Below, piece by piece: positions 3,084-44,318 of a DNA stretch of 64,000 nucleotides; within the stretch, counting starts at the first letter, position 1, and each line of letters begins with the position of its first letter. The translations under genes and the position numbers were made by a program. This stretch comes from Escherichia coli (GTDB lineage Bacteria > Pseudomonadota > Gammaproteobacteria > Enterobacterales > Enterobacteriaceae). The stretch lies in NCBI RefSeq assembly GCF_001677475.2, contig NZ_CP015229.1, one strand, 5' to 3'. The notes under the pieces were generated by a model. The model saw only the letters and a list, made by a program, of their open reading frames with translations, did no database searches and had not been told where the DNA came from.

Positions 3084-3123
3084 TTGAAGATTGCCGGGGA
3101 TATCCACCCGGCAATGTGTGGAT

Positions 3124-3160
3124 GCCTGATGCGACGCTTAACGCGTCTTATCAGGCCTAC
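3124..3160. repeat. REP (repetitive extragenic palindrome) unit
   Basis: gcctgatgcgacgcttaacgcgtcttatcaggcctac, a canonical E. coli REP palindrome between convergent gltP and yjcO. Confidence 0.8.
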
Positions 3161-3902: not shown

Positions 3903-3930
3903 TAAAAAAACAGCCTCCGAAAGGAGGCTG
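3903..3930 (-). terminator. Rho-independent terminator downstream of fdhF
   Basis: Stem cagcctcc/ggaggctg with GAAA loop (3911-3930), followed on the minus strand by a 7-T run (plus-strand A-run 3904-3910). Confidence 0.8.
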
Positions 3931-3944
3931 TAGAAAGGACTGTA

Positions 3945-6092
3945 TTACGCCAGTGCCGCTTCGCGCAGGCGAGTTTTCAACTTGTTGTACTCGTCAATCA
4001 CGTACTGCTCGGCGGCGCGCTGATCGGCGATCGGCTCGACGCGCACGGCGCAGTATTTGTATTCCGGCGTTTTCGTAATCGGGCTTAAGTTTTCGGTAAC
4101 CAGCTCGTTACAGGCACCAATCCACCACTGGTAGGTCATATAAATCGCCCCTTTGTTCGGACGATCGCTGACCTGCGCACGGGTGATAATTTTGCCTTTA
4201 CGCGAGTGCACCCAAACCAATGCCTCATCTTCAATACCCAGACGTTTGGCGTCTTCGGTATTGATTTGTGCGTAGCCAGGTTCATCAGCCAGCGCCGCCA
4301 GTGCCGCACAGTTACCGGTCATCGAACGGCAAGAGTAGTGACCAACTTCACGCACCGTTGACAGTACCATCGGATACTCGTCGGTGAGTTTGTCGATTGG
4401 CGCTACCCAGTCGCAGGTGAAGAACTGCGCCAGACCGTTCGGGGTATCAAACTTCTCTTTAAACAGATAAGAAGTCCCCTGATCGGCATCTGAAGTATCG
4501 CGGCAAGGCCACTGAATGAAGCCCAGTTCGCCCATTTTCTCGTAAGTCGCACCGTAGAAATCCGGGCACAGATGACGCAACTCATCCCAGATCTCCTGGG
4601 TGTTGTTGTAGTGCATCGGATAACCCATACGGGTGGCGATTTCACTGATGATTTGCCAGTCCGTTTTCAGATCCCATTTCGGTTCAACCGCTTTGAAGAA
4701 ACGCTGGAAGCCACGGTCAGCCGCAGTAAACACGCCTTCATGCTCGCCCCACGACGTTGACGGTAAAATAACATCCGCCGCCGACGCGGTTTTGGTCATA
4801 AAGATGTCCTGAACGATGACCAGTTCCAGATCTTCAAAGGCTTTACGTACTGCCGACAGCTCCGCGTCAGTTTGAAGCGGATCTTCGCCCATAATGTACG
4901 CGGCACGCACTTCACCATGCGCTGCGCGGTGCGGCAGCTCGCTGATGCGATAACCGGTATGAGCAGGCAGGCTTTCCACGCCCCAGGCTTTGGCGAATTT
5001 CTCGCGGTTAGCCGGATCTTTCACGTACTGGTATCCCGGATACGTATCCGGCAGCGCGCCCATATCGCAGGCACCCTGCACGTTGTTCTGACCACGAACC
5101 GGGTTTACACCCGCATGCGGCTTACCGAGGTTACCGGTCAGCATCGCGAGGCTGGTCAGAGAACGCACGGTTTCCACGCCCTGGTAGAACTGGGTTACAC
5201 CCATGCCCCACAGGATGGCGGCGCTTTTCGCCTGGGCATACATCCGTGCCGCCTGACGAATCTCACTGGCGCTGACGCCGGTGATATCTTCAACCGACTC
5301 CGGCGTGTAGCCTTCAACGATTTTACGATACTCTTCAAAGCCTTCTGTACGGGAAGCGACGAAAGCTTTGTCGTACAGGTTTTCTTCAATAATGACATGA
5401 CCCATCGCATTCAACAGCGCGATGTTCGAGCCGTTTTTCAGTGCAATGTGCATGTCAGCAATGCGCGCGGTTTCAATTTTGCGCGGATCGCAGACGATAA
5501 TTTTCGCCCCGTTACGTTTAGCGTTAATTACGTGGTTCGCCACGATTGGGTGGGAATCCGCCGGGTTGTACCCGAAAACGAACACTAAATCGGTATTATC
5601 AATTTCGTTAATAGCATTGCTCATTGCGCCATTACCGACCGATTGGTGCAGACCTGCAACCGATGGGCCGTGTCAGACACGAGCGCAGCAGTCAACGTTA
5701 TTGGTACCAATAACGGCGCGCGCAAATTTTTGCATTACATAGTTGGTTTCGTTACCCGTACCACGCGAGGAGCCGGTCGTCTGGATGGCATCCGGACCGT
5801 ACTTCTCTTTGATGGCGCTCAGGCGCTCGGCAACGTAATTCAGTGCCTCATCCCAGGAAACAGGTTCGAGTTTGCCGCCACGCTGGCGACGGATCATGGG
5901 GGTTTTCAGGCGCGGGGTCAGGATCTGGGTATCGTTAATGAAGTCCCAGCCATAATAACCCTTCAGACACAGGGTACCCTGGTTGGTTTTCCCCTGCGCT
6001 GCCTCCGCCCGGACGATTTTGCCGTTATCGACGACCAGGTTGATTTTGCAACCTGATGCGCAATAGGGGCAAACCGTGACGACTTTTTTCAT
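3945..6092 (-). CDS. fdhF: Formate dehydrogenase H, selenocysteine-containing molybdoenzyme (715 aa); in-frame UGA at 5673-5675 decoded as Sec
   Basis: ORF-track pieces 5673..6092 and 3945..5624 are in the same frame, separated only by TGA; read-through gives ...CCARV-U-HGPSVAGLHQSVGNGAMSNAINEIDNTDLVFVFGYNPADSHP..., the known FdhF sequence around Sec140. Confidence 0.95.
5630..5675 (-). other. Selenocysteine recoding site: UGA plus downstream SECIS hairpin in fdhF mRNA
   Basis: mRNA reads UGA-CACGGCCCAUCGGUUGCAGGUCUGCACCAAUCGGUCGGUAAUGGCG immediately 3' of the UGA, the classic fdhF SelB-binding stem-loop. Confidence 0.85.
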
Positions 6093-6142: not shown

Positions 6143-6160
6143 ATGCATCTTTTATGCCAC
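6143..6160 (-). promoter_or_regulatory. Sigma-54 (-24/-12) promoter of fdhF
   Basis: Minus-strand TGGCATAAAAGATGCA fits the GG-N10-GC spacing of the TGGCAC-N5-TTGCA consensus; about 50 bp upstream of the fdhF ATG. Confidence 0.7.
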
Positions 6161-6224
6161 ATTTTATTTGGGGTCATTCCCTGATATTACGGGCACTATT
6201 TATTCAAAACTCTGACGAAAAACA

Positions 6225-6265
6225 GGCTGTCGTCAGTTTTGACGTGACGAAACGAAATACCGCGT
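6225..6265 (-). promoter_or_regulatory. Candidate FhlA upstream activating sequence for fdhF
   Basis: Palindromic cgtcagttttgacgtgacga block about 80-110 bp upstream of the sigma-54 promoter, where the fdhF UAS is known to lie; exact site boundaries not verified. Confidence 0.4.
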
Positions 6266-6289
6266 GACAGCCATCACGCGGCAGACATT

Positions 6290-7756: not shown

Positions 7757-9804
7757 TGCGTGGCTCCTTGTACCTGTTCCGTGGCGGGCGTTAATACCGG
7801 GGCTGTCCAGTCTGGCAAGCGGGCGAAAAGCTGGCAGACGTGTTGCTCCTGTTTTAATAAGGTCGGCAGGATGGCCTGCGAGGCGGGTGTTTCTTCAAGC
7901 GTTATTTGAGGAGAACGGCTGAGTGCGGTTGCCAGACCGGCGGCGTATTTCTCCAGTGCGTCGGCAAACTGACCTGCTCTGTCCGGCTGGAGCGCGTTAT
8001 CCAGCGCCTGCGCCGAGTTCCAGGTTGCATCCCAGGCGTGAAGAATATCGCGGCCCTGACGAATAACCGTTTGCGAACGTTCAATCAGTAAAGCGCGTTC
8101 TTCGCTGTCCAGTTGACGCTCCAGCGCCACGCGTTGGCACATCTCTTCACAGGCATTAAACGCCGCATGCAGACCTATACGAATTTGCAGATAAGTGCGC
8201 AGAGCCGTGACTTCCTGTTGGCGCGGGATACGCATCAGTTTGCTTAACATACCCAGCGCGCCAGCCAGTTTTTGCGGCAGTGCACGCGCTTCGCTTTCAG
8301 GCCAGACAAAGGTGTAAATCACCGCCGATACTGCCGTACCGATAAGAATGCCGATGGCACGATCGCGTATTTCCACCAGGTCGTAAAACGGACCAAAGAC
8401 GTTTTCGAGCGTGGCGAGAGCAAAGGTCACCACCATCTGCGTGCCGATATAAGAAGAACGCTCAGAGCTGGTGGCGAACCACGCACCTGCCAGGAAAATC
8501 GGTGCCAGTACGAGCAGCAATTCGACAATGTTGTCCAGCCATGGCATGACCAGTAGCGTAAACAGCAACGCCAGAATTGCACCACAAAAAGCTCCGCCAA
8601 AACGTAGCGCCATCTTCTGGTACGAAGAACCGATATTAGGGTTAGCGACGATCACGCAGGTCAGCATACAGGTGTGAATGCCTTCCCAGTCCACGCCGCT
8701 GTAGAAGGTGTAACAGATCAAACAGGCCAGCAGCGTTTTTACTGCGTAACGCATATAGTCCGGATTAGTAAAGGCATCGGCGACCATTGACGGCGGTTTG
8801 GCGGCGGGCGTTGGCGGTGTGTGCGGATCCATCTGACCAAGCTGTAACAGTGTCTGGCAGATATTCTCCAGGTTACATTCCCGTGCCGCCATCGCTTCAT
8901 CTTCACTAAGCCGCCAGTCGCTTTGCCAGCACTGCCCTTTGGCAATAGCATGTTGCAGCTTGGTGATTTCAATGGCTAATTTTTGCCGAAACTCAATGAT
9001 TACCTGCGAATCAGCAAAAGAGGTGGGATCGTAGCGATTCAGCGTCGAGTAAATGTAGGTTACCGTTGCCACGCAGCTTTGCCACCATGCGCTCTGGGCT
9101 CGCCAGTTGGCATCATCCGCGAGGCAAAAGACATTGAGTTTTTGCAGCGCCAGCGTCTCTCTTTCAATCCGCGTTTCGGGTAGCGGTGCGAGGCTGTCCG
9201 TCAGGTGGCTAATGGCATCATCAAGCCGATCATTAATCGCCTGATGCATCTGCGTAATGGCACGACTGGGAAACCACAGCACGCCGATTAACGTCATCAG
9301 CAAGGTTGGATAGAGGCCAACAACGATACACCACAGGGTTAAGCGCACGACCACTTCCGGATAGTCGAGCATGGCGGGGAAGGTTTGCCCGTAAATAGCG
9401 ACAATGGCGACGGCGAAAAAGACCAGCCCCAACCGATGGGTGCGCATCAAAAACATACAGCCCATCAGGATAGGACCTGCGATGATCAATCGGATCAACG
9501 GTTCGCCATATGACCATTTGTAGATCAAAAACAGGCTGGCGATCTCCAGCACCGTGGCGACCACAAACAAGATCGCCACAAATTTGGTGTAAAACGCGTT
9601 CGACTGAATACCGTAAAACAGCACTGCCAGTGATAACGCCACAAAAGGGATCTCAAAAGTCATCGAGATCAGAATCACCAGTAGGCAGCCTACCCAGAGT
9701 TGCACGGTCTGCGGCACACGACCTGGCCGCCGCTCGCTTAACTCTTCATGAAAGAACGCCAGCAGCCTGACCACCGGTAATGGCAGGGAGTTGAGCGCGC
9801 TCAT
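7753..9804 (-). CDS. mdtO: Efflux pump inner-membrane component MdtO (aromatic acid exporter family)
   Basis: 683-aa polytopic membrane ORF; operon context mdtN-mdtO-mdtP. Confidence 0.85.
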   Translation of the reverse strand: MSALNSLPLPVVRLLAFFHEELSERRPGRVPQTVQLWVGCLLVILISMTFEIPFVALSLAVLFYGIQSNAFYTKFVAILFVVATVLEIASLFLIYKWSYGEPLIRLIIAGPILMGCMFLMRTHRLGLVFFAVAIVAIYGQTFPAMLDYPEVVVRLTLWCIVVGLYPTLLMTLIGVLWFPSRAITQMHQAINDRLDDAISHLTDSLAPLPETRIERETLALQKLNVFCLADDANWRAQSAWWQSCVATVTYIYSTLNRYDPTSFADSQVIIEFRQKLAIEITKLQHAIAKGQCWQSDWRLSEDEAMAARECNLENICQTLLQLGQMDPHTPPTPAAKPPSMVADAFTNPDYMRYAVKTLLACLICYTFYSGVDWEGIHTCMLTCVIVANPNIGSSYQKMALRFGGAFCGAILALLFTLLVMPWLDNIVELLLVLAPIFLAGAWFATSSERSSYIGTQMVVTFALATLENVFGPFYDLVEIRDRAIGILIGTAVSAVIYTFVWPESEARALPQKLAGALGMLSKLMRIPRQQEVTALRTYLQIRIGLHAAFNACEEMCQRVALERQLDSEERALLIERSQTVIRQGRDILHAWDATWNSAQALDNALQPDRAGQFADALEKYAAGLATALSRSPQITLEETPASQAILPTLLKQEQHVCQLFARLPDWTAPVLTPATEQVQGATQ

Positions 9805-10853: not shown

Positions 10854-11129
10854 TTAGAAAAATGCCAGCCAGAGCAGCATGGCGTAGAGAGCAAAAAGGG
10901 CGGTATAAATAATTCCGACAAATGCCAGATTGATATTTGCCCGCTGAATAATTCGCCTCGCGATGAGCGTCAAAATAAGGCTGGCAATAGCGCAGAAAAA
11001 CCAGCTGGGATAATAAGCGCCGATCACCGGGATTGCCGGAGATAATGAGCATCCCGAAACCATGAAGACGGGAATTATCCAGGCTGTTTTTTTGAGTTGC
11101 ATCGCCATGCGAGAGAGAACTGTTGGCAT
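10854..11129 (-). CDS. ytcA: Small lipoprotein/membrane protein YtcA (91 aa)
   Basis: ATG at 11129-11127 gives MPTVLSRMAMQLKKTAWIIPVFMVSGCSLSP... with lipobox; first gene of the ytcA-mdtNOP cluster. Confidence 0.75.
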   Translation of the reverse strand: MPTVLSRMAMQLKKTAWIIPVFMVSGCSLSPAIPVIGAYYPSWFFCAIASLILTLIARRIIQRANINLAFVGIIYTALFALYAMLLWLAFF

Positions 11130-11300
11130 ATTAAATACATCCTGTCTGCTGCGAACAATATCTGTAGTGAATATCAATATCCATTGAAGGCGTCAGTATG
11201 GCTATTTTCTTGATGAATAAAAATAGCTTTATTCAGCCACCGCATTCATAACTTATATATTTTATGTATTAATTGCCTGTATGTATTTTTATAATAAATA

Positions 11301-11328
11301 CTTTTGGGGGCTTAAGCGCCCCCAAAAG
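11301..11328 (-). terminator. Rho-independent terminator downstream of yjcS
   Basis: cttttgggggc-ttaa-gcgcccccaaaag hairpin followed on the minus strand by a T/A-rich tract. Confidence 0.65.
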
Positions 11329-11337
11329 TGAGTGGCA

Positions 11338-13323
11338 TTAATTTGGGGTTACGATATTCACCCACAAATCGAAATTATCCAGACAGGCAATAATTTCTTC
11401 CAGTTTCGCGCCATTGCCAATAATTTTGGCTTTCTTCGCTTTTACCAGATCCGCCATTTTGGCTTGTCCGGTCAGCACGGCGTGCAGATCTTCACGGCTA
11501 ATGTAGAAGGACGCATTGGCTTGCGGTTGCAGCGTTTTACGGTAGTTAAGCACGCTATCGTTCAGGGTCAGGTTGAGGTTATCGCCGTTACTCATATTGA
11601 AGTTCAGGCTGATGTTCTTCCCGGCGGCTTTTTCGCTATCGAGGCGAACAGCCATAAAGTCGAACAGCATTTCGACCGACATCCCGCGAATGGTATCCGG
11701 GGAACCGGTGGTGCCGTGGCTGAACTTATGTACCCCTTCGCGCAGCTCTTTCGCGCCAGTCAGGTAGAAACCGCGCCAGGTGGCTGACTCCGCCTGATAA
11801 CCAAGCTGTTCAAAGTTATTGGCTTGCAGATTCTTCGCCACCTGGTCGCCCGGATTGGCGGCAATCACCTGTTTCAGTAACTCTGCCGACCAGCGATAAT
11901 CTCCCTGCTTGTTTGCTTCTTGCGCCAGGCTGATGACGCGTGCGGAACCGCCCAACGCCTGTACATAACGTTTACCCATCTCCACCTGACCATACGGATG
12001 CAGGTTTGCCGGGTTACCGTCGTAATAGCCGAGGTAGAAGTTATATACCGCACGGGCGTTGTGGCTGACAGAACCGTAATAGCCACGGCTGGCCCAGTTA
12101 TTGGCAAGCGCAGGCGGCAGCTTAATCATGTCGCCGATTTCATTCATGGTGTAGCCCTGGTTTGCCAGGTGCAGGGTCTGGTCGTGAATGTACTTGATAG
12201 TATCGCGATATTTACCAATATAATCATTGATATGCTTATTGCCCCATACCGGCCAGGTGTGCGGCATAAACAGGACTTCCGCTTCGTTACCCCACATATC
12301 CAGCGTTTCGTTCAGGTACTCGGTCCACTTGTTGGTATCGCGGGTTTTCGCGCCGCGCAGAGTGTAGAAGTTGTGCAGGGTATGCGTGGCGTTCTCGGCG
12401 GTACACAGGGCTTTCAGGGCCGGAATATAGAAGTGCATTTCCGCTGGCGCTTCGCTGCCTGGGGTCATCAGGAAGTCAAACTCCAGGCCGTCGATAATCA
12501 TCTTCTCGCCAGTTCTGACGATCGTTTTGGTTGGCGCAATAATGCTTGGGTCACCGGTTGCCAGCGTCACGCCAAGGCCATTACCCACGTTACCCTGCGC
12601 GTTGTGCGGCAGTAACAGGCCGTAAGAGTAGAGCGCACGGCGGCTCATAATGTTACCCGCCAGTACGTTTTCACTGATGGCTTCGTCCATAAATCCAGCA
12701 GGGGCAATCACCTGCACTTTGCCCGATTTAACATCGGCTTCAGAGATAATACCTTTCACGCCACCATAGTGGTCAGTGTGGCTGTGGGTGTAGATAACCG
12801 CAACAATCGGTTTTTGCGGACGATGCTGGAAGTAAAGGTCAAGGGCGGCTTTTGCGGCAGGCGGCGTTACCAGCGGGTCGATAACAATAATGCCTTTCTC
12901 GCCTTCCACGAACGTAATGTTGGAGATGTCCTGACCACGCACCTGATACATTTTATCGGTGACTTTGAACAGGCCAGAAATACCGTTGATCTGTGACTGA
13001 CGCCACAGGCTGGGGTTTACGGTTTCCGGCGCAGCGGCATTAATATCAAATTTGTAATCGTCTGCGCGGTAGTAAACTTTACCGTTCGCATCACGCAGAA
13101 TACCTTCGTTCAGCAGCGGAGCGATAAATCCACGCTGGGCATCGTCAAAATCCTGACGATCGCTAAACGGTAATGATTTGGCGTAATTCTGATTAACCTG
13201 TTGCGTATATTGGGAGGCGGCTTTCGCTTCCTCTTTCGCGTAAGCGGTATTTACCATCATGCCGCTGGCGGCGGTTAACGCAATAACAATCCTGCTCAAA
13301 CGGAATAACCGAGAGTTATTCAT
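11338..13323 (-). CDS. yjcS: Alkyl/aryl-sulfatase YjcS (metallo-beta-lactamase fold with SCP2-like C-terminal domain)
   Basis: 661-aa reading from the ATG at 13323 (GGAG Shine-Dalgarno 8 nt upstream); signal peptide; HSHTDHYGG metallo-beta-lactamase motif. Confidence 0.88.
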
Positions 13324-13575
13324 ATAAATCTCCATTTATCATTTGTGTCGTAAATATGTAATCCATGCAAAATACGTCATTTAAAGCTGGCGATATCATA
13401 ATTGGGAAATTGCGACTTTAATAAGTAGAAGTGTGAGCTGAACGCGCCATTTTATTAGGCATTTGTGCTGAAGAGGGAAAAGTACGCAAATTTATTATCT
13501 CTGTAAATAATATGAGGTGTTTTATATATTTATTATATATATTGTACTTCGGCAAATACTGAGCACAATTAATCA

Positions 13576-13893
13576 ATGCAACCGGTGTTTTTTATTAAAA
13601 AACGTACCGGAGCAATGGGCGGTCATGTCGCTGGCACCGCAGGATTCTGTGTTGCTGTGCCAGCCTTTTATTCATGGTCAATGAGTGAGGGGATTGATAA
13701 AGAAACCAGGTCGTCAGAGCGCACTGATTATCCGCATTACGCCAGTGAAGTTGCACTGGCTTTTGGTTCACGAGTGGTTGGCCTCGAACTGGCAAAAATG
13801 ATTGTGGATGCGTGGCTGGGCGCGCAGTACGAAGGCGGTCGTCATCAACAACGCGTGGAGGCGATTACGGCAATAGAGCAGCGGAGAAATTGA
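13576..13893 (+). pseudogene. rpiB: Decayed remnant of ribose-5-phosphate isomerase B / allose-6-phosphate isomerase (rpiB)
   Basis: C-terminal ...SSERTDYPHYASEVALA-FGSRVVGLELAKMIVDAWLGAQYEGGRHQQRVEAITAIEQRRN matches RpiB, but the central catalytic segment (ICGTGVG region, about 50 residues) is missing and the N-terminus is unrelated. Confidence 0.6.
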
Positions 13894-13961
13894 GATTCAT
13901 CCACTACTTGCATGGATGAGTAATGACTAATGTGGATAGAGTTTCTTTTTGAGGTTGGCTA

Positions 13962-14291
13962 ATGAAACGCTTTCCGCTATTTCTTTTATTCACCCTGCTC
14001 ACGCTGTCCACCGTTCCGGCCCAGGCCGATATTATCGACGACACCATTGGCAATATTCAGCAGGCGATTAACGACGCTTATAACCCTGACCGTGGGCGAG
14101 ACTATGAAGATTCGCACGACGACGGCTGGCAGCGTGAAGTGAGCGACGATCGGCGCAGACAATATGACGACCGCCGCCGCCAGTTTGAAGATCGCCGCAG
14201 GCAGCTGGACGATCGCCAGCGCCAGCTTGATCAGGAGCGTCGGCAACTGGAGGATGAAGAGCGGAGAATGGAAGATGAGTATGGGCGATGA
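13962..14291 (+). CDS. yjdP: Secreted low-complexity protein YjdP
   Basis: 109-aa ORF, signal peptide MKRFPLFLLFTLLTLSTVPAQA, then repeated DDRRRQ-type charged repeats. Confidence 0.8.
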   Translation: MKRFPLFLLFTLLTLSTVPAQADIIDDTIGNIQQAINDAYNPDRGRDYEDSHDDGWQREVSDDRRRQYDDRRRQFEDRRRQLDDRQRQLDQERRQLEDEERRMEDEYGR

Positions 14292-14332
14292 GGTAGGCTC
14301 GGGTGAGGGGGCCAGCGAGCACATTCTCCCCA

Positions 14333-15091
14333 TCACGCCACCCCAATCTCCATCCCATCAAACCCCGCCTCAAACCCCGACGGCAGTGCGTTTTCCATCA
14401 GCCACGCATCAAACTGGTGGCTGATATGGGTCAGAATCACCCGTGGCGAGCGGATAACCTGATTCAGCGCAAGCACGGTATTTAAATCACAGTGATTACG
14501 CGGTGCATCCTCGCGCGGCGGGTGGCTGCAATCAATCACCATTACCTGCGGCTGATTATTGCGTAAAAATTTCAGCGTTTTTTCCGGCAAGCCAGCGGTG
14601 TCAGACAGCCACGCCACCCGGCTGTGTGCCGTTTCCAGCAGATAACCGAAGGTCAGTTTTGAGTGGTTGAGCGGCAGCGGCGTGACCTGTAATCCCTGCA
14701 AATCAAACATCACAAATGGCTCCACCGTGTGGCTGAAATCAAGCAGGCCCGGATGTTTAAACAGATCGTCGCAGCCCTGTTCATCCGGCGGGCCGTAGAT
14801 CGGGATCGAATCGCCCACGCCCCAGCGCAGCGGAAACAGCCCCTGCACGTGATCCATATGGTAGTGCGTCAGCAAAAACTGCTGGAACGATCCGGGCGAC
14901 CAGCGATCGGCGAGATCGTGCAGCCCGGCGTCGATCAGGGTGATCGCGTCGTTAAACTTCACGACGCCGCTGCATGGCTGGCGGCGATACTGCGGTGAGC
15001 GCCGCGCTCTGGCGCAGGCCGCGCACTCACAGCCCCATGCGGGAACGCCCTGTGCGCCGCCAGTGCCAGTAAGTGTGAGGGTCAGGCTCAT
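14333..15091 (-). CDS. phnP: Phosphoribosyl 1,2-cyclic phosphate phosphodiesterase PhnP (metallo-beta-lactamase fold)
   Basis: 252-aa ORF with HYHMDH motif; last gene of the phn operon. Confidence 0.9.
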
Positions 15092-24377: not shown

Positions 24378-25166
24378 TCAGGCAGCTTTCGCGTTTTCTT
24401 CGACGCGGTTGATGCTGCGGTAGAGATGGTCAAAACGTTCGTTATCAAACTGTTGGCTGCTGCCGTCGTAGAAGACGTGCCCCTGGCGCAGGGCGACGAT
24501 GCGTTCGCAGTAGCGCAGGGCGTAATCCACCTGATGCAGCGTGACGACCACGGTAATGCCGTCGTTCTGGTTAATGTCGCGCAGGGTGTCCATCACGATG
24601 CGCGCCGATTCCGGGTCCAGCGAGGCGATGGGTTCATCGGCCAGAATTACCTTCGCCTGCTGCATCAGCGCGCGGGCAATCGCCACACGCTGCTGTTGCC
24701 CGCCGGAGAGGGTGGAAACGCGCTGATGGGCAAAATGCACCATGCCAACGCGGGTCAGCGCCTGTAACGCGCGCTGTTTCTGCTCGCGGGTGAACCAGCT
24801 AAAACAGGTGCGCCAGAATGGCGTGCTGCCGAGCGCGCCAATCAGCACGTTCTCCAGTACGCTCAGGCGATTCACCAGGTTGAATTGTTGGAAGATGTAG
24901 CCGGTGTTGGCGCGGCTTTTGCGGATATCGCGGGCCAGGCGGCCTTCGCGCTGGACTGTGCGGCCCAGCAGCTCGATATGGCTACCGGCAGATTTATCGC
25001 CGGTAATCAAACCGCTTAAGTGACGTAAAAGGGTGGATTTGCCGGAACCCGACGGCCCAAGCAGAGCCACCATTTCACCGTGATGAATGTTCAGATCAAC
25101 CGCGTGCAGCGCCTGATGCTGATTGAAGGTTTTGGCGAGCTTCTCGACACGGATAATCGTTTGCAT
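24378..25166 (-). CDS. phnC: Phosphonate ABC transporter ATP-binding protein PhnC
   Basis: 262-aa ORF, Walker [13 protein letters not shown] signature LSGGQQQR; good GGGAGG ribosome-binding site. Confidence 0.93.
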
Positions 25167-25210
25167 GATGCAGCCTCCCTAAAAAAGTGGCTCCATCGTG
25201 GCGGATTATT

Positions 25211-25245
25211 GTGACGATTTTGTTAACTAAAAGTGACTAACGGAT
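25211..25245 (-). promoter_or_regulatory. Pho box (PhoB-binding site) of the phnC promoter
   Basis: Minus-strand ccgTTAGTCACttttAGTTAACaaaaTCGTCAC: repeated TGTCAT-like 7-mers at about 11-bp phase, 45-80 bp upstream of the phnC ATG. Confidence 0.6.
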
Positions 25246-25298
25246 GAAGAGTTAACGAGATTTCGATGACAGTGCGGGAGGGCGGCCCTCCCGGCGGG

Positions 25299-25742
25299 TT
25301 AGTGCGTTGGTTGTTGTTTGACGACATTAATCATCCACGGTACGCCAAATTTATCGGTGACTTTGCCGAAGCCATGCGCCCAGAAAGTTTCCTGCCAGGC
25401 CATTTCGATTTTTCCGTTAGCGGCAAGGTTGTCAAACCAGCGTTTTCCTTCTTCGACCTGTTGCGAATCGAGCACCAGCGTAAAGCCGGAGTAGCTGGCT
25501 TTTCCTGACGGTATAGCATCGCTCATCATGATATCGCTTCCGGCAATGCGCACATTGGCGTGGGCGATGGCGGTATCGGGAAATTGCATTCCGGAAGGGC
25601 AGTTCTCGGCGCTGTCCTGCGCTGATTTTGGCATTTCGCCGAAGCTGATTTTATAGAGCAGTTCAGCGCCCAACGTACGTTGATAATAAGCAATTGCGTC
25701 GGCACAGTTACCGGCAAAAGAGAGGTAGGGACTTAACGGCAT
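25299..25742 (-). CDS. yjdN: Glyoxalase/bleomycin-resistance-fold protein YjdN (PhnB)
   Basis: 147-aa ORF MPLSPYLSFAGNCADAIAYYQ... Confidence 0.85.
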   Translation of the reverse strand: MPLSPYLSFAGNCADAIAYYQRTLGAELLYKISFGEMPKSAQDSAENCPSGMQFPDTAIAHANVRIAGSDIMMSDAIPSGKASYSGFTLVLDSQQVEEGKRWFDNLAANGKIEMAWQETFWAHGFGKVTDKFGVPWMINVVKQQPTH

Positions 25743-25807
25743 GATGGTGACCTCAGTTAAGAGAAGCCAGTTAAGTGTAGTTCGAAATTTATACAGATGA
25801 GAGGGAA

Positions 25808-25883
25808 GCCTGATAAGACGCGGTCAGCGTCGCATCAGGCTGTCGGCATCGTTGCCGGATGCGGCGCGAGCGCCTTATCCGGC
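25808..25883. repeat. BIME: two inverted REP units between yjdN and yjdM
   Basis: gcctgataagacgcggtcagcgtcgcatcaggc and gccggatgcggcgcgagcgccttatccggc. Confidence 0.8.
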
Positions 25884-25901
25884 TTACCGATCACAATACA
25901 A

Positions 25902-26237
25902 TCAGTTCTTTTTCACAAACTCAGATTTCAGTTTCATCGGACCAAAACCGTCGATTTTGCAATCGATGTTATGGTCGCCTTCAACCAGGCGGATGTTTTT
26001 CACTTTGGTGCCAATTTTCAGCATCGAAGAGCTACCTTTCACCTTCAGATCTTTAATGATGGTAACGCTGTCGCCGTCAGCCAGCAGATTGCCATTAGCA
26101 TCTTTAACGATCAGCTCGTCGCTTTCCTGTGCAGGTTCTGCGTCGTTCCATTCGTAGGCACATTCCGGGCAGATGTACATGCCGTTATCTTCGTAGGTGT
26201 ATTCGGAGTTGCATTTTGGGCAGTGTGGTAATGACAT
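25902..26237 (-). CDS. yjdM: Zinc-ribbon protein YjdM (PhnA)
   Basis: ATG at 26237 gives [30 protein letters not shown]... (111 aa, two CxxC pairs); ORF-track start at 26384 is an extension. Confidence 0.88.
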
Positions 26238-26636
26238 GTGGATTTCCTCAAAAGTCAGCAGGGCAAAAGCGCCAAAAAACGGCAGATTGCCGAAAAAGGC
26301 CGCAATTATACACAAAATCCCTGAGTTTGTCGGGGGTACTGCTGATTTTAGACGACGATCGTTTTCATTTGAAAGGAAACGCAAAAAGAAAATAATCTTT
26401 TTGCCTCCATTTATTATTTAAGATAAGGTTAATGCTCTACTTGTTCTTTTTTTAATTCAAATGATATTTTTATCTTTCTGACGTTTTAAACGTATCGGAA
26501 GATGTTATTTATTTTAATAAAAAAACACTCTAAATATAAAATTATTTCTTGCAGTAATTATAAAAGCCGAAAACAGAACTCAAAAACAATCTGGCTAAAT
26601 AAAAGTAACAAAATTTGCTTTAAGGAAGAATTTTCT

Positions 26637-28865
26637 ATGTACACACAGACCCTGTATGAGTTAAGTCAGGAGGCTGAACGGCTGTTACAGCTTTCTCGCC
26701 AACAGTTGCAGTTACTGGAAAAAATGCCTCTCTCTGTACCCGGAGACGATGCGCCACAACTGGCTTTACCCTGGAGTCAGCCTAATATCGCCGAACGTCA
26801 CGCGATGCTGAATAATGAGTTGCGTAAAATTTCCCGACTGGAAATGGTGCTGGCGATTGTCGGTACCATGAAAGCAGGGAAATCAACCACCATTAATGCC
26901 ATTGTTGGTACGGAGGTTCTGCCTAATCGTAATCGCCCAATGACTGCGCTGCCGACGCTTATTCGCCATACGCCCGGGCAAAAGGAACCGGTACTGCATT
27001 TTTCACATGTCGCGCCAATCGATTGTTTAATTCAAAAATTACAACAGCGCCTGCGTGATTGCGATATTAAGCATCTGACCGATGTGCTGGAAATAGATAA
27101 AGATATGCGTGCGCTTATGCAGCGGATCGAAAATGGCGTCGCTTTCGAAAAATATTATCTGGGTGCCCAGCCTATTTTTCATTGTCTGAAAAGTTTGAAT
27201 GATTTGGTGCGACTGGCGAAGGCGCTGGACGTCGATTTTCCTTTTTCTGCTTACGCCGCCATTGAGCATATTCCCGTGATTGAAGTGGAGTTTGTCCATC
27301 TGGCGGGGCTGGAGAGTTATCCCGGTCAGTTGACGTTACTGGATACCCCCGGGCCAAATGAAGCCGGGCAACCGCATCTGCAAAAAATGCTTAACCAGCA
27401 GCTGGCTCGCGCCTCGGCGGTATTGGCGGTGCTGGATTATACGCAACTGAAATCGATCTCCGATGAAGAGGTCCGTGAGGCGATTTTGGCGGTGGGGCAA
27501 TCGGTGCCGCTGTATGTGCTGGTCAATAAGTTCGATCAACAGGATCGTAACAGTGACGACGCCGACCAGGTGCGGGCACTGATTTCCGGGACGCTGATGA
27601 AAGGCTGTATTACGCCACAGCAGATATTTCCGGTGTCGTCGATGTGGGGCTACCTGGCGAATCGGGCGCGCCATGAGTTAGCCAACAACGGTAAGTTACC
27701 ACCGCCAGAGCAACAACGCTGGGTGGAAGATTTTGCCCATGCCGCGCTCGGCAGGCGCTGGCGTCATGCCGATCTGGCTGACCTCGAACATATTCGTCAT
27801 GCTGCCGATCAGTTGTGGGAAGATTCGCTGTTCGCCCAGCCAATTCAGGCGTTGCTTCATGCCGCTTACGCTAACGCCTCGTTGTATGCTCTGCGATCTG
27901 CCGCGCATAAACTGTTGAATTACGCGCAGCAGGCGCGGGAATACCTGGATTTCCGTGCGCACGGGTTAAACGTCGCTTGTGAACAATTGCGGCAAAATAT
28001 TCATCAGATCGAAGAAAGTTTGCAGCTATTGCAACTCAATCAGGCGCAGGTGAGCGGCGAGATTAAACATGAAATCGAGCTGGCCCTGACCTCCGCCAAC
28101 CACTTTCTGCGTCAACAGCAAGATGCGCTGAATGCGCAGTTTGCCGCCTTGTTTCAGGATGATTCGGAGCCGTTAAGCGAGATTCGTACCCGCTGTGAGA
28201 CACTGTTACAGACGGCGCAGAACACCATTAGTCGCGACTTTACGCTGCGTTTTGCCGAGCTGGAATCCACCCTTTGCCGGGTGTTAACCGATGTTATTCG
28301 CCCCATTGAGCAACAAATCAAAATGGAATTGAGCGAGTCAGGGTTTCGTCCTGGGTTTCATTTTCCTGTTTTTCACGGCGCAGTTCCCCACTTCAACACT
28401 CGCCAGCTGTTCAGTGAAGTCATTTCGCGCCAGGAAGCAACGGACGAGCAGAGCACGCGTTTAGGCGTTGTGCGTGAGACTTTTTCGCGCTGGTTGAATC
28501 AGCCCGACTGGGGACGGGGAAATGAGAAATCCCCGACAGAGACGGTTGATTACAGTGTGTTGCAACGAGCATTAAGCGCAGAAGTCGATCTTTATTGCCA
28601 ACAAATGGCTAAAGTTCTGGCAGAGCAGGTCGATGAATCTGTTACGGCAGGCATGAATACTTTTTTCGCTGAGTTCGCTTCATGTTTGACGGAATTACAG
28701 ACGCGTTTACGCGAAAGTCTGGCTCTGCGTGAACAAAATGAATCGGTGGTCAGGCTGATGCAGCAGCAATTGCAGCAGACTGTGATGACTCACGGCTGGA
28801 TTTACACCGACGCCCAGCTGTTACGCGATGATATTCAAACACTTTTCACGGCAGAACGATATTGA
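26637..28865 (+). CDS. crfC: Dynamin-like large GTPase CrfC (YjdA)
   Basis: ATG at 26637 gives MYTQTLYELSQEAERLL...; GTPase G1 motif GTMKAGKST; 742 aa. Confidence 0.88.
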   Translation: MYTQTLYELSQEAERLLQLSRQQLQLLEKMPLSVPGDDAPQLALPWSQPNIAERHAMLNNELRKISRLEMVLAIVGTMKAGKSTTINAIVGTEVLPNRNRPMTALPTLIRHTPGQKEPVLHFSHVAPIDCLIQKLQQRLRDCDIKHLTDVLEIDKDMRALMQRIENGVAFEKYYLGAQPIFHCLKSLNDLVRLAKALDVDFPFSAYAAIEHIPVIEVEFVHLAGLESYPGQLTLLDTPGPNEAGQPHLQKMLNQQLARASAVLAVLDYTQLKSISDEEVREAILAVGQSVPLYVLVNKFDQQDRNSDDADQVRALISGTLMKGCITPQQIFPVSSMWGYLANRARHELANNGKLPPPEQQRWVEDFAHAALGRRWRHADLADLEHIRHAADQLWEDSLFAQPIQALLHAAYANASLYALRSAAHKLLNYAQQAREYLDFRAHGLNVACEQLRQNIHQIEESLQLLQLNQAQVSGEIKHEIELALTSANHFLRQQQDALNAQFAALFQDDSEPLSEIRTRCETLLQTAQNTISRDFTLRFAELESTLCRVLTDVIRPIEQQIKMELSESGFRPGFHFPVFHGAVPHFNTRQLFSEVISRQEATDEQSTRLGVVRETFSRWLNQPDWGRGNEKSPTETVDYSVLQRALSAEVDLYCQQMAKVLAEQVDESVTAGMNTFFAEFASCLTELQTRLRESLALREQNESVVRLMQQQLQQTVMTHGWIYTDAQLLRDDIQTLFTAERY

Positions 28866-29740
28866 CCAAGACGTTACTTGACGGCCCCGGTCGCGTGCTG
28901 GAGTCGGTTTATCCCCGCTTTTTAGTGGATCTGGCGCAGGGCGATGATGCCCGCCTTCCACAAGCCCATCAGCAGCAGTTTCGTGAACGACTGATGCAGG
29001 AACTTCTTGCGCGCGTGCAGCTTCAGACATGGACGAACGGCGGCATGTTAAATGCGCCGCTTAGCCTGCGTCTGACATTGGTGGAAAAACTGGCGTCGAT
29101 GCTGGATCCCGGTCATCTGGCGCTGACGCAGATCGCGCAGCATCTGGCGCTGCTGCAAAAAATGGATCACCGCCAGCACTCTGCTTTCCCAGAGCTCCCC
29201 CAGCAAATTGCCGCCTTGTATGAGTGGTTTTCAGCCCGTTGTCGCTGGAAGGAAAAGGCGTTAACGCAACGAGGCCTCCTGGTGCAGGCAGGTGATCAGA
29301 GCGAGCAAATTTTTACCCGCTGGCGTGCTGGGGCGTATAACGCCTGGTCGTTGCCTGGGCGCTGTTTTATCGTTCTGGAGGAGTTGCGCTGGGGGGCATT
29401 TGGCGATGCCTGCCGTCTGGGAAGCCCGCAAGCGGTGGCGTTGTTGCTGGGTGATTTGCGCGAGAAAGCGACACAACATCTGGCAGAGAGTATCAATGCG
29501 GCACCGACCACGCGTCACTATTACCATCAGTGGTTTGCCTCTTCGACCGTTCCGACGGGAGGGGATCATGCTGATTTTTTAAGTTGGCTGGGAAAGTGGA
29601 CCACGGCAGATAAACAGCCCGTTTGCTGGTCAGTGACCCAACGCTGGCAAACAGTCGCGCTGGGGATGCCACGACTCTGTTCAGCGCAGCGTTTGGTGGG
29701 GGCAATGGTCGAGGAAATCTTCTCTGTAAATTTGGTGTAA
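28862..29740 (+). CDS. yjcZ: CrfC-partner protein YjcZ
   Basis: 292-aa ORF whose TTG start overlaps the crfC TGA stop (TTGA). Confidence 0.8.
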   Translation: MTKTLLDGPGRVLESVYPRFLVDLAQGDDARLPQAHQQQFRERLMQELLARVQLQTWTNGGMLNAPLSLRLTLVEKLASMLDPGHLALTQIAQHLALLQKMDHRQHSAFPELPQQIAALYEWFSARCRWKEKALTQRGLLVQAGDQSEQIFTRWRAGAYNAWSLPGRCFIVLEELRWGAFGDACRLGSPQAVALLLGDLREKATQHLAESINAAPTTRHYYHQWFASSTVPTGGDHADFLSWLGKWTTADKQPVCWSVTQRWQTVALGMPRLCSAQRLVGAMVEEIFSVNLV

Positions 29741-30003
29741 ATAATCAGTTACATCAATGAGTCTTAAACGAAATTCATGTGTGAAGTTGATCGCAAATTT
29801 AAACACTGGTAGGGTAAAAAGGTCATTAACTGCCCAATTCAGGCGTCAACTGGTTTGATTGTACATTCCTTAACCGGAGGGTGTAAGCAAACCCGCTACG
29901 CTTGTTACAGAGATTGCATCCTGCAATTCCCGCTCCCCTTTTGCGGCCGTCGCGCTGATTTTTCTGGCGTTTGCGGAAATGGGCCAACTCTGCGAGGAAA
30001 GCT

Positions 30004-31506
30004 ATGCTGAAAAGGAAAAAAGTAAAACCAATTACCCTTCGTGATGTCACCATTATTGATGACGGTAAACTGCGTAAAGCCATTACCGCAGCATCACTGG
30101 GTAATGCAATGGAATGGTTTGATTTTGGTGTTTATGGTTTTGTTGCTTACGCATTAGGTAAAGTTTTTTTCCCGGGGGCTGACCCCAGCGTGCAGATGGT
30201 TGCTGCACTTGCCACTTTCTCCGTTCCCTTTCTGATTCGACCGCTTGGCGGACTCTTCTTTGGTATGTTGGGCGATAAATATGGTCGCCAGAAGATCCTC
30301 GCTATCACTATTGTGATTATGTCGATCAGTACGTTCTGTATTGGCTTAATACCGTCCTACGACACGATTGGTATTTGGGCACCGATTCTGCTGTTGATCT
30401 GTAAGATGGCACAAGGTTTCTCGGTCGGCGGTGAATATACCGGGGCGTCGATATTTGTTGCGGAATACTCCCCTGACCGTAAACGTGGCTTTATGGGCAG
30501 CTGGCTGGACTTCGGTTCTATTGCCGGGTTTGTGCTGGGTGCGGGCGTGGTGGTGTTAATTTCGACCATTGTCGGCGAAGAGAACTTCCTCGACTGGGGT
30601 TGGCGTATTCCGTTCTTTATTGCTCTGCCGTTAGGGATTATCGGGCTTTACCTGCGCCATGCGCTGGAAGAGACTCCGGCGTTCCAGCAGCATGTCGATA
30701 AACTGGAACAGGGCGACCGCGAAGGTTTGCAGGATGGCCCGAAAGTCTCGTTTAAAGAGATTGCCACCAAACACTGGCGCAGCCTGTTGACATGTATTGG
30801 TCTGGTAATTGCCACCAACGTGACTTACTACATGTTGCTGACCTATATGCCGAGTTATTTGTCGCATAACCTGCATTACTCCGAAGACCACGGGGTGCTG
30901 ATTATTATCGCCATTATGATCGGTATGCTGTTTGTTCAACCGGTGATGGGCTTGCTGAGTGACCGTTTTGGTCGTCGTCCGTTTGTGCTACTTGGTAGTG
31001 TTGCCCTGTTTGTGTTGGCGATCCCGGCGTTTATTCTGATTAACAGTAACGTCATCGGCCTGATTTTTGCCGGGTTACTGATGCTGGCGGTGATCCTTAA
31101 CTGCTTTACGGGCGTTATGGCTTCTACCTTGCCAGCGATGTTCCCGACGCATATCCGTTACAGCGCGCTGGCGGCGGCATTTAATATTTCGGTGCTGGTT
31201 GCCGGTCTGACGCCAACGCTGGCGGCCTGGCTGGTCGAAAGCTCGCAGAATCTGATGATGCCTGCCTATTACCTGATGGTAGTGGCGGTGATTGGTTTAA
31301 TCACCGGCGTAACCATGAAAGAGACGGCGAATCGTCCGTTGAAAGGTGCGACACCGGCGGCGTCAGATATACAGGAAGCGAAGGAAATTCTCGTCGAGCA
31401 TTACGATAATATTGAGCAGAAAATCGATGATATTGACCACGAAATTGCCGATTTGCAGGCGAAACGTACCCGCCTGGTGCAGCAACATCCGCGAATTGAT
31501 GAATAA
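30004..31506 (+). CDS. proP: Proline/glycine betaine:proton symporter (osmosensing MFS transporter)
   Basis: ATG at 30004 gives MLKRKKVKPITLRDVTIIDDGKLRKAITAASLGNAMEWFDFGVYGF...; C-terminal coiled coil (...IDDIDHEIADLQAKRTRLVQQ). Confidence 0.93.
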   Translation: MLKRKKVKPITLRDVTIIDDGKLRKAITAASLGNAMEWFDFGVYGFVAYALGKVFFPGADPSVQMVAALATFSVPFLIRPLGGLFFGMLGDKYGRQKILAITIVIMSISTFCIGLIPSYDTIGIWAPILLLICKMAQGFSVGGEYTGASIFVAEYSPDRKRGFMGSWLDFGSIAGFVLGAGVVVLISTIVGEENFLDWGWRIPFFIALPLGIIGLYLRHALEETPAFQQHVDKLEQGDREGLQDGPKVSFKEIATKHWRSLLTCIGLVIATNVTYYMLLTYMPSYLSHNLHYSEDHGVLIIIAIMIGMLFVQPVMGLLSDRFGRRPFVLLGSVALFVLAIPAFILINSNVIGLIFAGLLMLAVILNCFTGVMASTLPAMFPTHIRYSALAAAFNISVLVAGLTPTLAAWLVESSQNLMMPAYYLMVVAVIGLITGVTMKETANRPLKGATPAASDIQEAKEILVEHYDNIEQKIDDIDHEIADLQAKRTRLVQQHPRIDE

Positions 31507-31518
31507 GCTGAAACGGAT

Positions 31519-31547
31519 GGCCTGATGTGACGCTGTCTTATCAGGCC
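31519..31547. repeat. REP-like palindrome / proP terminator
   Basis: ggcctgatgtgacgctgtcttatcaggcc immediately downstream of the proP stop. Confidence 0.7.
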
Positions 31548-31559
31548 AACAATTGAACT

Positions 31560-31576
31560 CTTAAGGTTCACTTAAT
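31560..31576 (+). promoter_or_regulatory. PmrA (BasR) box upstream of pmrR
   Basis: CTTAAG-gttca-CTTAAT, an exact YTTAAK-N5-YTTAAK direct repeat 45-60 bp upstream of the pmrR ATG. Confidence 0.65.
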
Positions 31577-31620
31577 CTCTGACGCGCATACTCTCCTCCA
31601 GGTTAACGGAGGAGAGTGCA

Positions 31621-31710
31621 ATGAAAAACCGTGTTTATGAAAGTTTAACTACCGTGTTCAGCGTGCTGGTGGTCAGCAGCTTTCTTTATATCTGGTTTGC
31701 CACGTTCTGA
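31621..31710 (+). CDS. pmrR: Small membrane protein PmrR (29 aa); below the ORF-track cutoff
   Basis: atg aaa aac cgt ... ttc tga translates to MKNRVYESLTTVFSVLVVSSFLYIWFATF, a single TM helix; GGAGG Shine-Dalgarno; 3' end overlaps the convergent basS by 25 bp. Confidence 0.75.
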   Translation: MKNRVYESLTTVFSVLVVSSFLYIWFATF

Positions 31711-32786
31711 TCTTTCTTCAGCCGTACCCAGGCCCGCGTGCCGGAAGTCTCTTGCCGGTTCTGCAGGAAAAACTGCCCGTGATGCAACTGTGTAATGCGG
31801 CTGACAATACTTAACCCCAGACCAATCCCGCCATAACGGCTGTCCATACGTACAAACGCTTTACTCAACTCCCCGCATTTACTCTCATCAATACCCGGTC
31901 CTTCATCTTCAACGGCCATTACCGCTCCGCCATCTTCTTGCAGCTTAATCATAATGTTGCTGCCTTGCGGGCTGTAACGATGGGCGTTTTCTACCAGGTT
32001 TCGCAATAACATCCGCAGCAGGGTTGCGTCACCCTGAACGGTGATGTCGGCGGCGCTCTCTGGCAATAGCAGGGTTTGCTGGCGCTGGTCGAGCATGGTA
32101 CTGAGTTCGTCATACGAGGGGAGAATGACCTCTTCCAGCAGTTTTACATGTTGATAATTACCGGAAGAAAATGACTGTCCGGCGCGCGCCAGTTGTAACA
32201 GCTGGGAGACGCTCTCCATCATCTGATCAAGCCGTGCCACTAACGGTGCTACATCAATGTGATGCGTTTTCGCCAGCAGTTCCAGATGCAAACGCACCCC
32301 CGCCAGTGGCGTTCGCAGTTCGTGCGCGACGTCAGCGGTAAACAACCTTTCGTTATCCAGCGTGTTGGTCAGGCGACTGACCAGATCGTTTAACGCCGAA
32401 ACCACCGCTTCGATTTCGAGGGTGGCGCTGTGAATGGCAATGGGCGTTAAGTTGTCGGCGGTGCGCGCTTCCAGCTCTTTTTGCAGCTCCGCCAGCGGGC
32501 GGGTGATGCGATGCACCGCCTGATAGCAGATAAATAGCGTCAGGCTGACCATAAAGACGCCGGGGACAATCAGGCTGGCGACCGCCTCGCGGATCTCGCG
32601 CATAATGTGGCGATCGTTGTTGCGATTGTCGCGTAGCGCCTGCTCAAACAGCTGAATCTGCTCGGTACTTTCATGCCATAGCCAGAAGACGCTGATCAAC
32701 TCAAACACCAACAAAATGGCCCCGATGGTCAATATCAGCCGTTGGCGCAGCGATATTGGTCGGCGCAGAAAACGCATCAAATTCAA
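31686..32786 (-). CDS. basS: Two-component sensor histidine kinase BasS (PmrB)
   Basis: 366-aa ORF with two TM segments, HAMP, H-box (ADVAHELRTPL) and ATPase domain; exact start codon uncertain. Confidence 0.88.
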   Translation of the reverse strand: MNLMRFLRRPISLRQRLILTIGAILLVFELISVFWLWHESTEQIQLFEQALRDNRNNDRHIMREIREAVASLIVPGVFMVSLTLFICYQAVHRITRPLAELQKELEARTADNLTPIAIHSATLEIEAVVSALNDLVSRLTNTLDNERLFTADVAHELRTPLAGVRLHLELLAKTHHIDVAPLVARLDQMMESVSQLLQLARAGQSFSSGNYQHVKLLEEVILPSYDELSTMLDQRQQTLLLPESAADITVQGDATLLRMLLRNLVENAHRYSPQGSNIMIKLQEDGGAVMAVEDEGPGIDESKCGELSKAFVRMDSRYGGIGLGLSIVSRITQLHHGQFFLQNRQETSGTRAWVRLKKDQNVANQI

Positions 32787-33455
32787 TTAGTTTTCCTCTT
32801 TTGCGACCAGCATATAGCCAAAGCCGCGCACGGTGCGGATACGGGCTTTGCCCACTTTGTCGCGCAGATTGTGGATATGCACTTCCAGGGTGTTAGTCGA
32901 GGGTTCATTGTCCCAGTTATAGATGTCGTTGTAGAGAATTTCCCGATGCACCGGACTGCCTGCTTTGAGCATTAACCGTGACAGCAGAGCATATTCTTTG
33001 GGCGTCAGAATCAACTCTTCACCGCCCATCCATACCTGACGGCGACCCATATTCAGCGTCAGATTGCCAACAATCAGCTCACTTTCGCCCTGATTATTAT
33101 GGCGTCGTAGCAGGGCGCGGATACGGGCGTGCAACTCTTCCAGCGCGAACGGTTTTACCAGATAGTCGTCAGCCCCGACATCCAGCCCGGCGATTTTGTC
33201 TGTAAGGGTATCGCGGGCGGTGAGAATTAACACCGGCAGAGTGTATTTTTTCTGCCGGATACGGGCAAGAAAATGCAGCCCATCTTCATCGGGTAAGCCT
33301 AAATCCAGTACCACCAGGCTGTAATGACCGGCCTCAAGGCTTTGTTCCGCCATCCGCGCGGTTGTCACGCCATCGCACGCGTAGCCTTCGGTTTGCGCCG
33401 CCAGAATCAATCCCTGCAATAACAGCGTATCGTCTTCAACAATCAGAATTTTCAT
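32787..33455 (-). CDS. basR: Two-component response regulator BasR (PmrA), OmpR family
   Basis: 222-aa [19 protein letters not shown]...; receiver plus winged-helix domains. Confidence 0.92.
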
Positions 33456-35095: not shown

Positions 35096-35145
35096 CACGG
35101 TGTTTCCATCGAACAAAGTGCGCATATGCTCGCAAAGCAAAATTA

Positions 35146-35174
35146 AGCCAACCTTAAGTTCTTAAGGTTGGCTT
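35146..35174 (-). terminator. Palindromic terminator downstream of adiC
   Basis: aagccaaccttaag-ttc-ttaaggttggctt, a 13-bp perfect stem flanked by T-runs on both strands. Confidence 0.6.
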
Positions 35175-35198
35175 TTATGTGTGCTGGATTAAGGGGAA

Positions 35199-36536: not shown

Positions 36537-36672
36537 AATTAAACTCCTGCGAAGGCGAGCTTCGTGACAATAAATTACGTCATATCATACGCCTGCATTC
36601 GATAGTTGAATTATTATCGACCGGGTTATCGCTGATGCCGTTATTAATATAGCTCTTCGTTAAGGTTAAAAA

Positions 36673-37434: not shown

Positions 37435-37758
37435 ACATGTACTCCTGAGTGCGAATAAAAGACCAGTTCTCGCTAAAGCAAAGCGATACCGGGAAATGGT
37501 TATATAATTGTATGATGAATATAAACATGCATAAAAATAACGAGTTTTACTAATATTACAAATTTTTATAGTAATTTCTCATGTACATATTTTTTTACAG
37601 GGTAAATAACAGGCAAAAAAAAGCGCGGGGTGGGGCCGCGCAAAAAGTATGACATTTTTGTTTGCAGCAATTTTTATGAAAACGTTGCCATACTCAAAAG
37701 GCCTAAGGCCAGGCGGCGTAATGTTATTTAAACAATTACGCCTTCAGCGGAATAGTGG

Positions 37759-40026: not shown

Positions 40027-40224
40027 CATTGCTTACCCGGTTATGAAGGAATCTTCGTTGCGGGCAAGTATCTTCCGGCCTTTTCGGGCTGTAAAGCGCG
40101 TGAAAAATAAACATTTTTGAAATATTTGTTTTTATAAACAATATGTTATGTGATTATTTTAAATTATTTTCACTGCTTATTATCGACGGCTAAACTATTT
40201 TTTTGGCTGATACTGATATCGTCT

Positions 40225-41133: not shown

Positions 41134-41415
41134 GGAGGACTCTCTTTCCTAGAATATCAGAATTATGGCAGGAGTGAGGGAGGATGACTGCGAGTGGGAG
41201 CACGGTTTTCACCCTCTTTTCAGAGAGGCGAGGGGACTGTCCGAGCATCATGAGGCCGAAAACTCTGCTTTTCAGGTAATTTATTCCCATAAACTCAGAT
41301 TTACTGCTGCTTCACGCAGGATCTGAGTTTATGGGAATGCTCAACCTGGAAGCCGGAGGTTTTCTGCAGATTCGCCTGCCATGATGAAGTTATTCAAGCA
41401 AGCCAGGAGATCTGC
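41134..41415. promoter_or_regulatory. melR/melAB divergent promoter region
   Basis: 282-bp spacer between divergent melR and melA; known to carry MelR and CRP sites. Individual sites not resolved here. Confidence 0.5.
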
Positions 41416-44295: not shown

Positions 44296-44318
44296 CGTGG
44301 ACAATAGCTAACGAAAAT

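Follow-up and report, generated by a model that had tools for sequence, protein, structure and literature searches.

The fdhF gene of Escherichia coli encodes formate dehydrogenase H, the molybdopterin- and [4Fe-4S]-containing selenoenzyme of the formate-hydrogenlyase complex, and is the founding example both of bacterial selenocysteine (Sec) insertion and of the Rfam family SECIS_2 (RF01988). The fdnG and fdoG genes likewise encode Sec, and part of the fdhF SECIS element has been suggested to act independently of selenium. The features of this element reportedly include an 11-nt spacing, the nucleotides G23 and U24 in the loop and a bulged U17 (U17/18), in work ascribed to Heider and colleagues (1992) and to Liu and colleagues (1998). 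The minimal fdhF SECIS sequence, ATCGGTTGCAGGTCTGCACC, and the placement of Sec at residue 140 are stated in PMC10945757; a passage in the same paper conflicts with the common knowledge of fdnG and fdoG as Sec-encoding genes. The pathway of SelA, SelB, SelC and SelD is reviewed in PMC8659212 and its kinetics are treated in PMC4513850.

The fdhF locus described here lies within a 64-kb window (the whole stretch of DNA that was analyzed, positions 1-64000), and the closest described system is the fdhF gene of E. coli K-12 (b4079). The two loci share the gene order gltP-yjcO-fdhF-mdtP and encode an identical protein of 715 amino acids. The K-12 SECIS element is identical over its 55 nt, with the same position of the UGA, the same 11-nt spacer, the same GGUC loop and the same bulged U, and the 200 nt upstream of the gene differ at one base. 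The two coding sequences are separated only by 18 nucleotide substitutions, all of them synonymous and all located downstream of the UGA. SelB binding and Sec insertion are established for this identical K-12 SECIS sequence (e.g., PMC10945757, PMC4513850).

The elements of the fdnG/fdoG type share with fdhF a UGA that is followed by His-Gly-Pro, an apical loop formed by Ala-Gly-Leu codons with an invariant GGU, and, by established knowledge, the SelB-dependent mechanism. They differ in the protein motif (NQARVUHGPTVAGLAPTFGRGAMTN), in the protein family model (TIGR01553), in a loop of five nucleotides (GGUCU) and in the lower helix. The FdhF and FdhA homologs that use cysteine have the same fold and belong to the same TIGR01591 family as FdhF, but carry UGC or UGU in place of UGA, so that there is no in-frame stop and no SECIS element is needed. 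With both a UGA and a SECIS element, the gene in the window is therefore the selenocysteine form and not the cysteine form. Overall, the locus is read as E. coli fdhF, in which UGA140 is decoded as selenocysteine via the SECIS element to give a single formate dehydrogenase H of 715 residues, with a probability of about 0.98. The selenocysteine UGA and the SECIS element of fdhF are already known, textbook biology, and the reference annotation is correct.

One reading frame through the UGA codon

Translation of the locus on the minus strand gave one frame of 716 codons in which a TGA at codon 140 is the sole internal stop and which ends with TAA at positions 3945-3947 (table 1). The list of open reading frames divides the same locus into an ORF of 139 amino acids (5673..6092, minus strand) and an ORF of 559 amino acids (3945..5624, minus strand). 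Since the locus is a single frame with one internal TGA, both listed ORFs share that frame, and the 716-codon translation thus bears out the initial annotation, which had described two pieces in one frame that are split only by the TGA at 5673-5675. The second ORF begins at the ATG at 5624 (Met157) because the ORF tool requires a start codon; the stretch of 16 codons from the TGA to this ATG (5672..5625) is open and is part of one FdhF protein.

The read-through product, with residue 140 masked, is identical at 715 of 715 positions to the formate dehydrogenase H chains in the PDB entries 1AA6, 1FDI, 1FDO, 2IV2, and 7Z0T, and the non-standard residue X in these chains is found at exactly position 140, as in the read-through product. 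Scoring against the NCBIfam models was conducted with Sec140 entered as Cys: FdhF reaches 1095.7 bits against a cut-off of 666.25 for TIGR01591 (formate dehydrogenase subunit alpha), aligned over residues 6-685, and falls below the threshold of the FdnG model TIGR01553 (249 bits; cut-off, 814). The alignment to 1AA6 and the TIGR01591 score support the earlier claim that the locus is a single FdhF gene. Around the molybdenum-ligand position 140 the protein carries the motif CCARV-U-HGPSVAGL, which is common to 34 orthologs, and the genomic context (yjcO-fdhF-mdtP) is the conserved order in E. coli. The RefSeq/PGAP records, including b4079 of K-12 MG1655, contain a single fdhF CDS of 2148 nt that is flanked by yjcO and mdtP.

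A comparison with strain AMSHJX01 revealed 11 differences within the CDS, all synonymous, that are located on both sides of the UGA (10 downstream). Over the 575 codons downstream of the UGA, the number of amino acid changes relative to K-12 and AMSHJX01 is zero.

Table 1. Positions of the fdhF gene, its recoding elements and its flanking elements within the 64-kb window.
Feature	Position	Strand	Description
fdhF CDS, formate dehydrogenase H	3945..6092	-	715 aa + TAA; one gene through UGA codon 140
UGA codon 140, selenocysteine codon	5675..5673	-	Next base C (UGAC context); aligns with X140 of PDB 1AA6
Full SECIS element (Rfam SECIS_2)	5626..5680	-	Outer 5-bp helix across the UGA and main hairpin
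40-nt MFE hairpin	5634..5673	-	From A of the UGA to U5634; -14.9 kcal/mol
Minimal SelB-binding SECIS, ATCGGTTGCAGGTCTGCACC	5664..5645	-	Exact match to the published fdhF sequence
Sigma-54-type -24/-12 promoter-like element, TGGCATAAAAGATGCA	6144..6159	-	TGGCAT-N5-ATGCA; pattern match, 1 mismatch; ~50 nt upstream of the fdhF ATG
Intrinsic-terminator-like hairpin with T-run	3910..3931	-	9 pairs, 6 G-C; tail TTTTTTTATCC; 14 nt past the fdhF stop

The SECIS element and its conservation

The Rfam family SECIS_2 (RF01988) matches the segment across and downstream of the UGA over the full length of the model (1-55 of 55) with 87.1 bits (gathering score, 70; E = 1.4e-18), and is the sole cis-regulatory Rfam family above threshold in the whole 64-kb window. 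The related family SECIS_3 (RF01989) was rejected as an assignment (35.8 bits against a gathering score of 63); the elements of the FdnG type fit SECIS_3 better. A minimum free energy (MFE) fold of positions 5678..5630 on the minus strand produced a hairpin that lies directly 3' of the in-frame UGA, within the continuous reading frame. At its apex, a GGUC tetraloop sits on a 3-bp stem of G-C, C-G and A-U pairs with a bulged U just below. The minimal sequence ATCGGTTGCAGGTCTGCACC occurs exactly once in the window, with zero occurrences expected by chance, and contains a 17-nt minihelix (5645..5661) that consists of the apical stem GCA/UGC, the GGUC loop and the bulged U and is located 11 nt past the UGA. 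The initial annotation had placed a stem-loop in the roughly 40 nt 3' of the UGA and had predicted a GGUC loop and a bulged U; the loop and the bulge are present in the fold, the stem-loop agrees with the fold from A5673 to U5634 and with the SECIS_2 match, and the range it gave for the recoding site (5630-5675) is essentially right, falling inside the SECIS_2 element (5680..5626).

The stability of the hairpin is no better than that of dinucleotide shuffles (z = -1.01; 34 out of 200 shuffles fold as well), and stability was therefore not used as evidence for the SECIS element. Support for the element is provided by the model match and by conservation, not by free energy.

Within the species, the 2.5-kb fdhF locus has a match in 5419 of the 5426 complete E. 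coli genomes. The 71-nt segment that surrounds the UGA shows 100% identity in 5405 out of 5420 E. coli records, whereas the whole 2.5-kb locus is at least 99% identical in only 4329 of the 5420. In strain 14EC007, four synonymous differences from the window are found, two of which fall within the 55-nt element: a CGT to CGC change at Arg138 replaces a U-G pair by a C-G pair in the outer helix, and an AAT to AAC change at Asn154 affects an unpaired position. A minority variant of the SECIS element that combines CGC at Arg138 with AAC at Asn154 was also seen in NZ_JAATUR010000012.1, a record labeled Escherichia coli in the set with one genome per species, and is common to E. albertii and Citrobacter werkmanii; the form shared by the window and K-12 is the one found in the 5405 out of 5420 complete-genome records.

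Orthologs in other species were collected by a scan of one genome per species with the codon-degenerate pattern GTN TGA CAY GGN CCN NNN GTN GCN GGN YT, in which the wobble positions are free. A total of 120 loci were found that fall into two protein classes: 35 loci of the FdhF type (CCARV-U-HGPSVAGL, including the window) within the Enterobacterales and Pasteurellaceae, and 85 loci of the FdnG type (NQARV-U-HGPTVAGL), mostly within the Burkholderiales and other Proteobacteria. The FdnG-type UGA/SECIS loci represent the homologous class of fdnG and fdoG in other species. The TGA is invariant in 34 FdhF-type and 79 FdnG-type loci, by construction, as the search pattern required it.

Mean codon entropy at conserved residues was calculated for the 34 FdhF-type loci (enterobacterial and Pasteurellaceae) with enough flanking sequence. 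The entropy is 0.33 bits over codons +1 to +13 after the UGA, compared with 1.05 bits over the 50 codons upstream and 1.05 bits over codons +16 to +79. The apical stem-loop codons GCA-GGT-CTG are invariant across these 34 loci, and the loop glycine codon is GGT in 113 out of 113 loci of both types, including the GC-rich Burkholderiales, with the wobble position free in the search pattern. In the 79 FdnG-type loci the codons that form the closing pair total 73 GCA and 6 GCC on one side and 73 CTT and 6 CTG on the other; as read off the sequence listing, GCA is paired with CTT and GCC with CTG, a compensatory change. This conservation points to selection at the RNA level beyond the requirements of the protein. 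The threefold drop in synonymous variation over the 13 codons of the SECIS element, together with the GGU that is invariant in 113 loci, makes the segment a case of overlapping protein and RNA constraints.

Among the 22 distinct FdhF-type sequences of 55 nt, 93% of the cells are paired when the Rfam structure is imposed, compared with 21-50% when the pairing partners are slid, and neither the apical stem nor the loop varies in any of the 22. Fifteen of the 22 lack the middle pair A17-U39, and the lower and middle helices are therefore loosely constrained, in agreement with existing knowledge, by which the apical minihelix and its spacing from the UGA are the only critical features. Classical covariation among the 22 sequences is weak (one double change; 22 out of 500 shuffles reach the observed score). 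The FdhF-type sequences are too conserved for covariation, and suppressed synonymous variation was therefore used instead.

Alternative readings and the proposed decoding of UGA140

If fdhF were a pseudogene, the TGA would represent a nonsense mutation, with the N-terminal fragment of 139 residues as the sole product. A mechanical ORF call does split the locus at the TGA, and the free energy of the hairpin is by itself not exceptional; against this, the TGA is conserved along with its surrounding 71 nt in nearly every E. coli record (5405 out of 5420), the solved protein contains a non-standard residue at exactly position 140, and the differences downstream of the TGA are synonymous without exception (18 out of 18 relative to K-12, 10 out of 10 relative to AMSHJX01), which is the opposite of decay. 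As only synonymous differences separate the gene from its K-12 and AMSHJX01 counterparts, a decaying pseudogene is ruled out, and this highly improbable reading was rejected as effectively refuted already. A division into two genes, an N-terminal Fe-S protein of 139 amino acids (6092..5673) and a protein of 559 amino acids from the ATG at 5624, takes its support from the listing of both parts as independent ORFs with ATG starts. The 16 open codons between the TGA and that ATG, however, correspond exactly to residues 141-156 of the solved single-chain enzyme, the TIGR01591 alignment is continuous across residues 6-685, and RefSeq annotates one CDS; the additional constraint on synonymous sites immediately after the TGA is furthermore consistent with an RNA element that lies within a single translated frame. 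The two-gene reading was rejected based on the continuous alignment, the open codons and the single RefSeq CDS, and its probability is vanishingly small. The initial annotation had warned that treating the locus as two genes or as a pseudogene would be wrong, which holds given that the differences are synonymous only, but the warning is largely moot because RefSeq/PGAP already treats fdhF as one CDS.

The UGA could also be read by near-cognate suppression (e.g., as Trp or Cys) without SelB or a SECIS element, in which case the hairpin would be incidental coding sequence. The C that follows the UGA creates what is generally known as a leaky termination context, and the hairpin is not significantly more stable than shuffled sequences. 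Suppression of this kind nevertheless leaves unaccounted for a full-length Rfam SECIS_2 match above the gathering score, a threefold drop in codon entropy that coincides exactly with the 13 codons of the hairpin, a loop glycine codon that is GGT in 113 out of 113 loci even in the GC-rich Burkholderiales, and the exact presence of the published minimal SelB-binding sequence. It was rejected on the SECIS_2 match, the entropy drop, the GGT invariance and the exact minimal SECIS, and hardly any probability is assigned to it. There is no serious evidence against an fdhF gene decoded with Sec.

Under the preferred reading, the fdhF mRNA would present the UGA at codon 140 with the next ~40 nt of coding sequence folded into a bacterial SECIS hairpin. 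What follows, from the binding of SelB and its competition with RF2 to the catalytic role of Sec140, is taken from established knowledge: the apical 17-nt minihelix would be bound by the C-terminal winged-helix domains of the elongation factor SelB, and SelB-GTP carrying Sec-tRNA(Sec) would thereby be held at the approaching ribosome and would deliver selenocysteine to the UGA in the A-site in competition with RF2. Translation would then continue to the TAA and yield one protein of 715 residues in which Sec140 is expected to ligate the molybdenum of the Mo-bis-MGD center. As a minor possibility, the SECIS hairpin may also modulate translation or mRNA stability independently of selenium.

A search of the 64-kb window with the K-12 genes (tblastn and blastn) gave no match to selA, selB, selC, or selD. 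In K-12 these genes are located far from fdhF (selAB at 3.76 Mb, selC at 3.84 Mb and selD at 1.85 Mb), and selA, selB, selC, and selD are found in 5424-5425 of the 5426 complete E. coli genomes, which at the level of the species makes it very likely that selABCD are carried elsewhere in the source genome.

Selenoprotein genes are cut at the UGA by naive ORF callers, and a pipeline that did this would misreport fdhF as a pseudogene or as a pair of genes. The initial annotation recognized the recoding site from the raw sequence.

Flanking elements and the wider window

The promoter-like element upstream of fdhF (table 1) belongs to a pattern that is not significant at the level of the window, where six occurrences were found and 6.9 were expected. 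The element was designated a putative fdhF promoter because of its position and the known regulation of fdhF by FhlA and sigma-54. Further upstream, positions 6190-6260 on the minus strand contain repeated TCGTCA/TGACGA motifs (TTTCGTCACGTCAAAACTGACGACAG, TTTTCGTCAGAG) that look like FhlA upstream activating sites. A terminator-like hairpin with 11 pairs is located just upstream of these putative sites, in the mdtP-fdhF intergenic region (6258-6283, minus strand), and is presumably the terminator of the mdtNOP operon.

Along its length the window is collinear with the chromosome of E. coli, running from nrfE via gltP-yjcO-fdhF-mdtPON-yjcS-phn to the region of adiA, melB, fumB, dcuS, cadA, and lysS. 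Among 5,426 complete E. coli genomes, the highest identity reached is only 97.3% for positions 1-25000, 98.8% for positions 25001-45000 and 98.9% for positions 45001-64000. Relative to the best-matching genome, blocks of 1 kb with low identity are found at 8000-8999 (mdtO, 90.5%) and 11000-12999 (yjcS, ~94.5%), and fdhF shows 99.2-99.4% identity. The DNA appears to derive from a lineage of E. coli, or from a mosaic, with poor representation among complete genomes. As the best identity over stretches of 19-25 kb is 97.3-98.9%, the window might come from a lineage that is absent among the 5,426 complete genomes and in which selenoprotein usage or fdhF regulation could differ; this is very unlikely, and stands against an FdhF protein and a SECIS element that are identical to those of K-12 and an upstream region of 200 nt with one base different.

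In the best-matching genome (NZ_CP095529.1), the yjcS-phnP interval (window positions 13000-14600) contains only a short gene for an isomerase of the RpiB/LacA/LacB family and yjdP; the same interval in K-12 presumably holds the als (D-allose) operon. Two matches to the Rfam family naRNA4 (RF02564) correspond to REP/BIME-type repeats, one at 25807-25884 with a score above gathering (85.5 bits) and one between gltP and yjcO (3092-3157) that is sub-threshold (44.8 bits). Positions 31552-31717 on the plus strand strongly match the enterobacterial small RNA family STnc630 (RF02052), with 178.5 bits (gathering score, 55). A single tRNA gene is found in the window, a tRNA-Phe (GAA) at 62057-62132 on the minus strand, which from its neighborhood of cadA and lysS is probably pheU, a common integration site of genomic islands in E. 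coli.
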